A program made the position numbers and the translations under genes. The notes under the pieces are model-generated. The model made no database searches and was not told where the DNA came from. It saw only the letters and a program-made list of their open reading frames with translations. From a virus (taxonomy: Duplodnaviria; Caudoviricetes), in IMG/VR virus record IMGVR_UViG_3300044712_000786, positions 138,705-202,704 of that record: a stretch of DNA of 64,000 nucleotides, one strand, 5' to 3'. Of this stretch, positions 36,313 to 38,241 are shown piece after piece (within the stretch, counting starts at the first letter, position 1; every line of letters begins with the position of its first letter).

Positions 36313-36319
36313 GTGTAAT
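36313..36319 (+). promoter_or_regulatory. GTGTAAT putative phage (late) promoter element
   Basis: Same heptamer 7-9 nt before ATG at 7480, 11456, 36313, 37311, 61593. Confidence 0.55.
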
Positions 36320-36328
36320 ATTATACAC

Positions 36329-36955
36329 ATGTTAGATAAGTTAAAGAATTTTTTCTTTAGTAAATTAAGCCGTTCTTTAGGCTTCCAAATGTTTTTTGTT
36401 TGGGCGCTCATATCGATGGCTCATTTTCTATATGAAAAACTTTACGAAACTAACGAGAAATACATAGATGACTTATTTTCTGGAGTAATTGTTTTATTTG
36501 CTTTGTCTTCTATAGGTATTTTTAATCTATTGAGAGTCAATCATTTATTACAAATAGAACTTAAGAAAAGTCAAGAATTGGACGAATTAAAACTATTCTG
36601 TAATTCAATACCAGAAATAGGATTTATTCTAAATCCAGACGGGGCAGTTATTTATGTCAATAGAAGATGGACAGATTTTACTGGTCTCGACCCTTCCGAA
36701 GCTTTAGGTTGGAAGTGGCGCGATATAATCCATCCAGAGGAACGTGACCACGTTGTAAGTATCTGGGCAGCACATACTTATAAGAAAACGGACTTCAGGA
36801 CAGAGCACCGAGTTAGAGATAAAGACGGGAAGTATTCTTGGTTCTTGGCTAAAGCAAGACCTATAATAGGGGATGATGGAAAAGTCCTAAAATGGTTTGG
36901 GACATTATCCAACATCCAAGATTATATGGAAGAGAAGCAAACCTTTTCGCCTTAA
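36329..36955 (+). CDS. membrane protein with stand-alone PAS domain
   Basis: Two TM segments then NPDGAVIYVNRRWTDFTG...IIHPEE...EHRVRDKDGKYSW...PI...KWFGT. Confidence 0.85.
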   Translation: MLDKLKNFFFSKLSRSLGFQMFFVWALISMAHFLYEKLYETNEKYIDDLFSGVIVLFALSSIGIFNLLRVNHLLQIELKKSQELDELKLFCNSIPEIGFILNPDGAVIYVNRRWTDFTGLDPSEALGWKWRDIIHPEERDHVVSIWAAHTYKKTDFRTEHRVRDKDGKYSWFLAKARPIIGDDGKVLKWFGTLSNIQDYMEEKQTFSP

Positions 36956-36957
36956 TT

Positions 36958-37311
36958 ATGGAAAACGATATTTCTAATAGAGTAGATGTTCTAGAATCTG
37001 GTCAAGGACAAATTCTTCAAATTCTTCAAAAAATTGAAAAAAGACTTATTGGTAATTTGGAAGAAGATAAACCGGGACTTATTGATGATGTAAGGGTTCT
37101 ACGTAAAACAATGGAATCAATTGATACTAGAATTATGAATATAGAGCGAGCTAACTTAATAAATAGAATCCAAACGCTAGAAACCGAGATTCAATCTCTT
37201 TCGACTAAAGTCGCAGAGCTAACTAAGTATCGTTTCATGGTTTACGGCGGTATCCTAGTAGTCGCCTTTATATTTAATAAAGCTTGGGATTATATTCAAA
37301 AGATAATTTAG
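36958..37311 (+). CDS. coiled-coil protein with C-terminal TM (holin-like)
   Basis: Heptad repeats then FMVYGGILVVAFIF. Confidence 0.5.
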   Translation: MENDISNRVDVLESGQGQILQILQKIEKRLIGNLEEDKPGLIDDVRVLRKTMESIDTRIMNIERANLINRIQTLETEIQSLSTKVAELTKYRFMVYGGILVVAFIFNKAWDYIQKII

Positions 37312-37324
37312 TGTAATCTTAGGT

Positions 37325-38107
37325 ATGAAGATTGCATTAATTTTAGCCCTCGCTCTTTCTATGCCTTTAGTTGGTTGCGTGCCTAGCCGTATTAAAGGCG
37401 GAACGGTAGAACATTATTCTACAACTGGCTCTAAAACGGTTCTCGTCCAGTCTGATGACCCTAAGGAAAGGTCTATGATAGATGGGGCATCTGAAAAATC
37501 TACAGAGTTCGTAATTCCCGCTGGAAGCGTTGTACAGCTTGAAGTGCCCCAAACTGTCCAATCTACCCCAAAGACTATTTTGAATTCACCCAAGGCTAAA
37601 CCTAGCTCAGTAGCTATGCCCCCAGTGCCTACCCCCCAAGTTATGAATGTCGTTCTTGCTTCCAACGCTGTGATGAAGACTTCTTCTAGGGATAGTATGA
37701 AAACGGTTTCGGGAGCGGCCCAAAAGAACGTAATTGGAGAAATGGGAGCTAAACTAGCTTCTTTAAGACCCGTCCAATTTGTGGGCGTTGCTTTATTGTT
37801 ATTTGGTCTAGCTTCTATGTTTTGGCTACCCTTAAGGGCGATTGTCGGTTCTCATACCACTAGTTTAGTTATTGCAGCTACGGGACTTGGGCTTATCGTC
37901 CTCCCTATTTTAATCGTGGGAAACGAGGTATTAATCCTTTTGATTGGATTGGGTTGTGCCGCAGGCTATTTCTTTGTCTATCGCTATTCTCAAGCGTCTA
38001 CCAAAGCCAAGGTTTATAAAGATTTTATTGACCTAAATGGTAATAAAGTAGATGACCGTTTAGAAAAACCTGAAGAAAAAGTAGAAACTTCCGCTCCAAA
38101 AGTGTAA
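37325..38107 (+). CDS. lipoprotein with C-terminal TM segments (u-spanin-like topology)
   Basis: Lipobox LVGC at Cys18; three hydrophobic segments near the C-terminus. Confidence 0.5.
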   Translation: MKIALILALALSMPLVGCVPSRIKGGTVEHYSTTGSKTVLVQSDDPKERSMIDGASEKSTEFVIPAGSVVQLEVPQTVQSTPKTILNSPKAKPSSVAMPPVPTPQVMNVVLASNAVMKTSSRDSMKTVSGAAQKNVIGEMGAKLASLRPVQFVGVALLLFGLASMFWLPLRAIVGSHTTSLVIAATGLGLIVLPILIVGNEVLILLIGLGCAAGYFFVYRYSQASTKAKVYKDFIDLNGNKVDDRLEKPEEKVETSAPKV

Positions 38108-38161
38108 GATATAGTAGACATTGACATATAAAATAGTAGGTCACAGACCGAAAAACTAAAC

Positions 38162-38209
38162 CTCCCCCGTCAATGCAGTTCCAAAAGAATTAATTGGGGG
38201 AGCTTTTTT
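38162..38209 (+). terminator. terminator-like stem with large loop
   Basis: CTCCCCC/GGGGGAG followed by CTTTTTT. Confidence 0.55.
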
Positions 38210-38212
38210 CTC

Positions 38213-38241
38213 TTGAAATCTCTCTAATAGCCTTTTATAAT
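38213..38241 (+). promoter_or_regulatory. sigma70-type promoter of the glycosylation cluster
   Basis: TTGAAA-N17-TATAAT, 5 nt before ATG. Confidence 0.7.

Follow-up and report, generated by a model that had tools for sequence, protein, structure and literature searches.

In the lysis inhibition of phage T4, two antiholins, RI and the cytoplasmic RIII, act on the holin T in response to superinfection, a periplasmic signal. The unimolecular spanin (u-spanin) gp11 of phage T1, a 133-amino acid (aa) protein with one transmembrane (TM) domain, has a β-rich, cysteine-free periplasmic part and belongs to a family that usually travels with pinholins (Kongari et al., 2018, PMC6139136). XhlA of PBSX and gp24.1 of SPP1 are C-terminal-TM proteins that work with a multi-TM holin (PMC6316719). 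Here we describe a locus that resembles each of these systems in part: three adjacent genes, g1, g2 and g3, which encode a membrane PAS protein, a coiled-coil protein with a C-terminal TM helix and a lipoprotein with three TM helices. They lie in a 64,000-nucleotide (nt) stretch of DNA (the window) that covers positions 138705-202704 of the virus record IMGVR_UViG_3300044712_000786; the record is 202,704 bp long, with direct terminal repeats and a GC content of ~38%.

An earlier reading of the letters of the window (the original prediction) took the locus for a stand-alone PAS sensor within a putative lysis cassette. The new elements that we report are the conserved trio of PAS, coiled-coil/TM and lipoprotein genes and the g3 family with its coupled small partners. 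We consider the trio a conserved membrane module acting on the host envelope, most likely in lysis or on its timing, with the PAS protein as a clade-specific regulator, and put the probability of this interpretation at roughly 40%. The genes and the parts of their products are as follows.

36329..36955, + strand: g1, 208-aa membrane PAS protein without an output domain (PAS_3, 1.3e-20; TIGR00229, 63 bits)
36380..36535, + strand: g1 TM hairpin, with TM1 at residues 18-37, an acidic 13-residue loop and TM2 at residues 51-69 (sequence reading, hydropathy)
36587..36919, + strand: g1 PAS domain, residues 87-197 (profile matches)
36958..37311, + strand: g2, 117-aa coiled-coil protein with a C-terminal TM helix at residues ~92-108 (nt 37231-37281); family of seven
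37325..38107, + strand: g3, 260-aa lipoprotein with three TM helices, which founds an undescribed phage family
37367..37378, + strand: g3 lipobox LVGC, with Cys18 as the predicted lipidation site (invariant in alignment A1)
37766..37987, + strand: g3 three-helix TM core, residues 148-221, with the motifs GSxTTS, LIVGNE and R[HY]G (AlphaFold2 (AF2) predicted local distance difference test (pLDDT) 85-94)
38030..38056, + strand: g3 cytoplasmic tail motif DLNGNKVDD, residues 236-244 (sequence, alignment A1)

The three genes are conserved as a block

The trio sits in a long plus-strand block that runs from a GT4 glycosyltransferase gene through genes for a 124-aa regulator-like protein and the class II ribonucleotide reductase nrdJ (phrog_367, 8.5e-102) to g1-g2-g3, a cupin gene and many glycan genes. 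Its three co-oriented open reading frames (ORFs) follow nrdJ after 21 nt and are separated from one another by 2 nt (g1-g2) and 13 nt (g2-g3). No DNA or protein match to g1, g2 or g3 was found in 50,697 phage GenBank records, single-protein scans of IMG/VR returned no close relatives, and a relative of nrdJ (L002) is not syntenic.

An alignment-driven scan of Joint Genome Institute (JGI) metagenomes yielded two contigs with the same arrangement. The first, L163 (8,076 bp), has the gene order of the window throughout (GT4, a 121-aa gene, nrdJ, and genes for a 208-aa PAS protein, a 123-aa coiled-coil/TM protein and a lipoprotein), and the second, L162, carries a PAS gene cut by the contig end, followed by the coiled-coil/TM and lipoprotein genes. 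The g1 product is 46% identical to its orthologue in L163 and 40% identical to the partial one in L162, and identities to the window by tblastn are 47-51% for g2 and 51-54% for g3. The g2 family comprises seven proteins, which are encoded on the same contigs as the closest g3 relatives. Because the order is kept in L163 and L162 and relatives of g2 share contigs with the closest relatives of g3, we take the trio to be a selected unit in one phage clade. The synteny with L163 also takes in the GT4, 121-aa and nrdJ genes (L163:2317-5999); at least 8 kb is common to this otherwise unsampled clade.

g3 founds a family of lipoproteins with three transmembrane helices

The structure of g3 was modelled with AF2 from a 30-sequence alignment (mean pLDDT 73.7). 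The model has β strands between residues 27 and 129, a short helix at 136-146, TM helices at 148-166, 177-198 and 200-221, which carry the pLDDT of 85-94 given above, and then a 39-residue tail with a helix. The lipobox LVGC, the three C-terminal helices and the DLNGNKVDD tail had all been noted in the original prediction and stand. Fold searches with the model returned only generic helical hairpins (BFVD E ≥ 0.05; VIA Z ≤ 6.4), the ESM Atlas gave only unnamed viral clusters, and no model in Pfam, PHROG, NCBIfam or PADLOC matches g3. The tail had also been called EF-hand-like. The motif is indeed present, but the canonical EF-hand, a 12-residue loop of the form DxDxDGxIxxxE with a hydrophobic residue at position 8, is not: the hydrophobic residue comes one position early, at position 7, both in DLNGNKVDDRLE of g3 and in the family consensus DANKNGIDDRLE, the Pfam EF-hand models do not match g3, and the DxNxNG tail, offset by one residue from the EF loop, is found in only 46 of 132 family proteins.

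A word-indexed search identified 79 relatives of g3, and the family takes in 77 IMG/VR loci and 131 matches in species-representative genomes. The best 80 of these 131 matches fall almost entirely in metagenome-assembled genomes (MAGs) of Verrucomicrobiota (Limisphaerales, Pedosphaera, subdivision 3), often with several copies in one genome. Judged by sequence, at least 132 distinct proteins make up this undescribed family, nearly all of them apparently from Verrucomicrobiota phages and prophage-like elements. The family thereby provides a host lead, with Verrucomicrobiota as the best candidate, for a 203-kb soil phage otherwise without close relatives; the GC content of the phage is much lower than that of the Verrucomicrobiota genomes.

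Family proteins are 170-540 aa long (median 226) and share a common plan. The lipobox cysteine is present in all 132 and is followed by Asp at +2 in none, while the motifs GSxTTS, LIVGNE and R[HY]G each occur in 120-131 of the 132. The segment between the lipobox cysteine and the AAQK[DN] helix spans 53-212 aa (median 93) and is free of cysteine in 121 of 129 proteins, with a cysteine in the other 8. If lipoproteins lacking Asp at +2 are sorted to the outer membrane, a rule that may differ in the presumed host, g3 would have a u-spanin-like topology with an outer-membrane-type lipoprotein signal, a β-rich periplasmic segment and an inner-membrane anchor.

T1 gp11 is built in the same way, with an N-terminal outer-membrane-type lipoprotein signal, a β-rich, Cys-free periplasmic segment of ~100 residues and a C-terminal inner-membrane anchor, and genes of the g3 family in viral contigs are preceded by a pinholin-like gene, as are those of T1-family u-spanins. 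Unlike gp11, however, g3 has three TM helices and a cytoplasmic tail of 40 residues, both conserved, lacks an adjacent endolysin gene and shows no sequence similarity to it. The u-spanin combination put forward in the original prediction thus fits g3 in the lipoprotein signal and the inner-membrane anchor but not in the number of TM helices, three rather than one.

Family genes are coupled to small membrane partners in late operons

Among the 148 family genes with a recognised start, 121 are preceded by an ORF that ends at that start. The overlap between partner and family gene has a median of 4-8 nt, and in viral contigs the partner in turn starts a median of 1 nt after the late gene before it. 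Forty-eight of the 121 partners are ~100 aa long and have an N-terminal TM helix and a helical remainder. Another 34, of 60-78 aa, have a weak, Gly/Ala-rich TM1, a strong TM2 and a basic tail, a build that by analogy may be called pinholin-like. A coiled coil with a C-terminal TM helix characterises seven partners (the g2 family and two others). PADLOC gave no significant match for g1, g2, g3 or the partners, and no PAS protein was found at the g3-family loci of the wider viral and MAG set.

The start of g2 was set at the ATG at 36958 rather than at the beginning of the 139-aa ORF from 36892, because six homologues show it. The resulting protein consists of a long helix or coiled coil, the residues KYRF, a hydrophobic helix of 15-17 residues and 11 final residues. 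The C-terminal position of the TM helix, after KYRF, predicts a tail-anchored protein whose coiled coil lies in the cytoplasm. Searches of Pfam and PHROG with g2 gave chance-level matches only; PF10779 (XhlA) matches nothing in the genome at a threshold as loose as E 10, and phrog_937 reaches only E 0.0045 on g2. The protein shares the architecture of XhlA alone, without sequence membership. As in XhlA/XhlB of PBSX and gp24.1/gp26 of SPP1, a small helical protein with a single C-terminal TM helix is encoded directly beside a multi-TM protein, but these pairs differ from g2/g3 in that their known hosts are Gram-positive, XhlB is far smaller than the g3 lipoprotein, and no endolysin gene adjoins g2/g3.

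Two assignments for g2 were rejected. A canonical holin does not fit a protein whose N-terminal 90 residues are predicted to be cytoplasmic and which has no charged C-terminal tail and no profile match; the coiled-coil/TM part of the original description holds. An inner-membrane spanin (i-spanin), with an N-terminal TM helix and a periplasmic coiled coil, is likewise at odds with the C-terminal TM helix and the predicted cytoplasmic coiled coil. No outer-membrane spanin (o-spanin) ORF was found embedded in g2. In an hhalign comparison with L021-type coiled-coil/TM partners the probability was 9%, which does not support homology.

In viral records of ~60-74 kb, the family gene belongs to the late operon, where it comes after the gene for the major capsid protein, stands among genes for collagen-like fibres and overlaps its neighbours; one example of a complete or near-complete record of this kind is G005 (71,895 bp, 58% GC). 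The MAG loci have genes for a major head protein (phrog_247) and a head-tail adaptor (phrog_477), then the g3-family gene, a helix-turn-helix (HTH)/xis-like gene and an integrase gene. Late co-expression of the family with a small membrane partner would be compatible with lysis. The original prediction had counted virion structural neighbours against itself, a point partly touched here in that the relatives of g3 are encoded among capsid and fibre genes.

The same contexts bear on superinfection exclusion or envelope protection, in which g3 and its partner, seated in the envelope of an infected or lysogenic cell, would keep competing phages from entering in the manner of T5 Llp, Cor, HK97 gp15 or T4 Imm and Sp, with the PAS protein as an accessory. 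The genes of T5 Llp, Cor and HK97 gp15, which are small proteins of the envelope, lie next to genes for fibres or receptor-binding proteins or at the prophage end close to int, and the family genes correspondingly have collagen-like fibre genes around them in the ~72-kb viral contigs and come last before xis and int, a typical moron position, in the MAG loci. Several copies per genome in prophage-like or satellite-like elements and the lack of an endolysin near the family loci fit this alternative as well. Many exclusion proteins of the Llp, Cor and gp15 type are expressed early or from the prophage, whereas the g3 gene pair overlaps or abuts late structural genes and has no promoter of its own. 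The known proteins also show no sequence similarity to g3 and have neither a lipid anchor with three TM helices nor an obligatory small partner, and no match to known exclusion or defence families was found. Moreover, one would not expect exclusion proteins to include a partner class of pinholin-like build, and the family is also present in the 203-kb phage, where no integrase was seen, though that genome was not fully surveyed. We regard exclusion as less likely than a lysis role but as a serious alternative, and continue to favour a module acting in or on lysis.

Two further observations concern the MAG loci. Three places in OY969763.1 (L099, L105 and L116) are small prophage-like elements with a small TM protein and a g3-family lipoprotein. 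The MAG elements contain no tail genes between adaptor and integrase, and may be small, head-only, satellite-like elements that form capsids.

g1 is a membrane PAS protein of one phage clade

The first gene had been described as encoding a protein with two TM helices and a PAS domain and without a kinase or output domain, and this was confirmed. PAS_3 (PF08447) matches residues 107-192 with 73.8 bits against a cut-off of 25.6, and the TIGR00229 sensory box scores 63.2 bits against a cut-off of 22.9. TM2 runs on into a linker helix, only ~10 residues follow the PAS domain, and neither HisKA/DHp nor HATPase_c of Pfam matches g1, which is thus not a sensor histidine kinase by domain content. Its orthologues likewise have 208 aa, and the TM hairpin and linker are conserved in L163. 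Given the basic N-terminus and the acidic loop, the positive-inside rule places the PAS domain in the cytoplasm. The sequence lacks the NCRFL-type cysteine motif of flavin-binding LOV domains, with YtvA and LOV-kinase models reaching only E 0.017-0.018, and matches to PDB sequences included no informative relative and nothing on a cofactor.

The PAS protein was seen only in the jumbo-phage clade, always immediately 5´ of g2 and g3. Having no output domain, it would act only through contacts. The proposed role resembles T4 lysis inhibition insofar as RI and RIII are extra proteins that set lysis timing by binding a membrane lysis protein, T. In contrast to RI and RIII, with which it shares no homology, g1 carries a cytoplasmic PAS domain as its sensor, whereas the T4 signal is periplasmic.

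The original prediction offered a second role, in which the PAS protein jams a host histidine kinase; g1 would then be a truncated copy of a host sensor kinase that forms dead heterodimers. Two TM helices, a linker helix and a PAS domain do make up the N-terminal part of many sensor kinases. A sensitive search with g1 among 1.8 billion representative proteins gave 98,193 PAS matches, and the nearest PAS domains sit in multi-PAS kinases. However, the best 150 of the 98,193 matches, dominated by multi-PAS proteins, are only 25-34% identical and cover the PAS domain alone; they come from mixed sources, cyanobacteria and Bacteroidota, that are uninformative on the origin of g1. Residues 1-90 have no match in 301 Verrucomicrobiota genomes, and in five genomes carrying relatives of g3 the matches are confined to residues 74-206 with at most 33% identity. 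With g1 also locked to g2 and g3 in every relative, we consider a kinase decoy very improbable, and a regulator of the other two membrane proteins remains our preferred role for g1.

A possible role in lysis

If the trio acts in lysis, g3, with a lipid at its N-terminus in the outer membrane and three helices in the inner membrane, would bridge the periplasm like the u-spanin T1 gp11, and its three-helix core with a charged cytoplasmic tail could at the same time be the build of a class I holin. The g2 protein would be the small membrane partner of g3, as XhlA or gp24.1 is for a multi-TM holin, and g1, as a clade-specific addition, would by contact presumably hold or release g2/g3 on a cytoplasmic cue. 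The g3 core with its charged tail and the partners of 60-78 aa would fit the build of holins; g2, with its 11-residue C-terminus, does not.

Several results weigh against this interpretation. No endolysin gene adjoins the block, which has nrdJ upstream and a separately promoted glycosylation island downstream. The lysis cassette of the original prediction gains no support from these neighbours, though the late context of the relatives is compatible with it. No lysis family is found among the recurrent neighbours of ~150 g3-family loci, and neither the components of the trio nor the g3 family and its partner classes match any holin or spanin model of Pfam or PHROG. With three TM helices and a ~40-residue tail in place of the single C-terminal TM helix of a u-spanin, g3 differs from all described u-spanins. 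For g1, AF2 gave a model of low confidence (pLDDT 49) from three aligned sequences, which permits no inference about a ligand. A position beside fibre genes or xis and int is typical of exclusion genes too. Finally, an alternative set that looks like holin and spanin genes is encoded on the minus strand at genome positions 102180-104259. This cluster of small membrane proteins comprises a 120-aa protein with 3-4 TM helices, a 103-aa protein with an N-terminal TM helix, a 94-aa protein with an N-terminal TM helix and a coiled coil, and a 77-aa lipoprotein (LAGC, Pro-rich start). Its single weak match is to phrog_456 (E 0.0096), and it could hold the real spanins.

This genome has no match to the endolysin families PF01510, PF01520, PF00959 and PF01183. 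In 19 related records of ~60-74 kb, PF00959, PF01510, PF01464, PF05497, PF05838 and PF13539 were not found either (for PF05497 without a positive control), and Pfam models run over the whole G005 genome identified no endolysin family. Because the endolysin families searched for were found neither in this genome nor in its relatives, synteny with endolysin genes could not decide the matter. The 19 records (G005 and 18 similar ones from IMG/VR) are mostly complete, probably come from phages that infect Verrucomicrobiota and show no recognisable endolysin in these Pfam searches.

The only candidate wall hydrolase found in the genome of the trio is a 130-aa protein (positions 84492-84884, minus strand) with an N-terminal signal or signal-arrest-release (SAR)-like segment and a lysozyme/transglycosylase-like motif; it scores 25.6 bits with Destabilase, below the cut-off of 26.2. 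Its gene lies ~90 kb from the trio among small early-looking genes.

A broader version of the proposal would make the g3 family a lipid-tethered, three-helix spanin and holin device with an exchangeable partner, which would be the main lysis machinery of Verrucomicrobiota phages without a recognisable endolysin and, in one jumbo-phage clade, would be gated by the membrane-anchored PAS protein according to the internal state of the host; we think this quite unlikely. Should the g3 family and its partners prove to be lysis proteins, host lysis by a large group of uncultured Verrucomicrobiota phages would be explained, and the known means of lysis would gain a lipid-anchored, three-helix spanin/holin design. 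In that case the PAS protein would exemplify how a phage ties the moment of lysis to a cytoplasmic signal.

Expression signals in and around the block

Two features lie between g3 and the glycosylation island, which is 15 kb long and begins 140 nt 3´ of g3.

38162..38211, + strand: terminator-like stem-loop and U run at the 3´ end of the block (fold of 38150-38215: -15.8 kcal/mol, z-score -2.1)
38213..38241, + strand: sigma-70-like promoter, TTGAAA, 17-nt spacer and TATAAT (11 of 12 consensus positions), which opens the glycosylation island

Because a terminator-like hairpin and then a near-consensus promoter of the island's own come between them, the trio is best viewed as a unit separate from the glycan genes. 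This arrangement counts against the trio being a membrane accessory of the island, for example for the anchoring or export of a phage-made glycan. Such a role would fit the GT4 gene upstream of nrdJ and the closeness of the island, and genes for an epimerase, a GDP-mannose dehydratase and a pyruvyl-transferase recur near some family members. Most family loci, however, have capsid or fibre neighbours and no glycan genes, and no similarity to flippases or polymerases was detected, making a glycan role improbable.

The GTGTAAT elements that had been noted before the first and third genes are present.

36313..36319, + strand: GTGTAAT, 9 nt 5´ of the g1 start (variant GTGTAAG at the equivalent site of L163)
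37311..37317, + strand: GTGTAAT, overlapping the g2 stop codon and 7 nt 5´ of the g3 start

By count alone the enrichment is weak, with 14 occurrences in the window against 6.5 expected and 14 reached in 2 of 100 shuffles. The element is nevertheless kept 5´ of the g3 orthologues (L163:7034-7040; L162:~697-703), and GTGTAAG stands at L163:6004-6011, 5´ of the PAS gene; the elements lie 7-10 nt upstream of start codons. Their retention at orthologous sites, although the proteins encoded by these contigs are only ~50% identical, points to a real expression signal, perhaps a -10-like promoter element or a piece of an extended ribosome-binding site.

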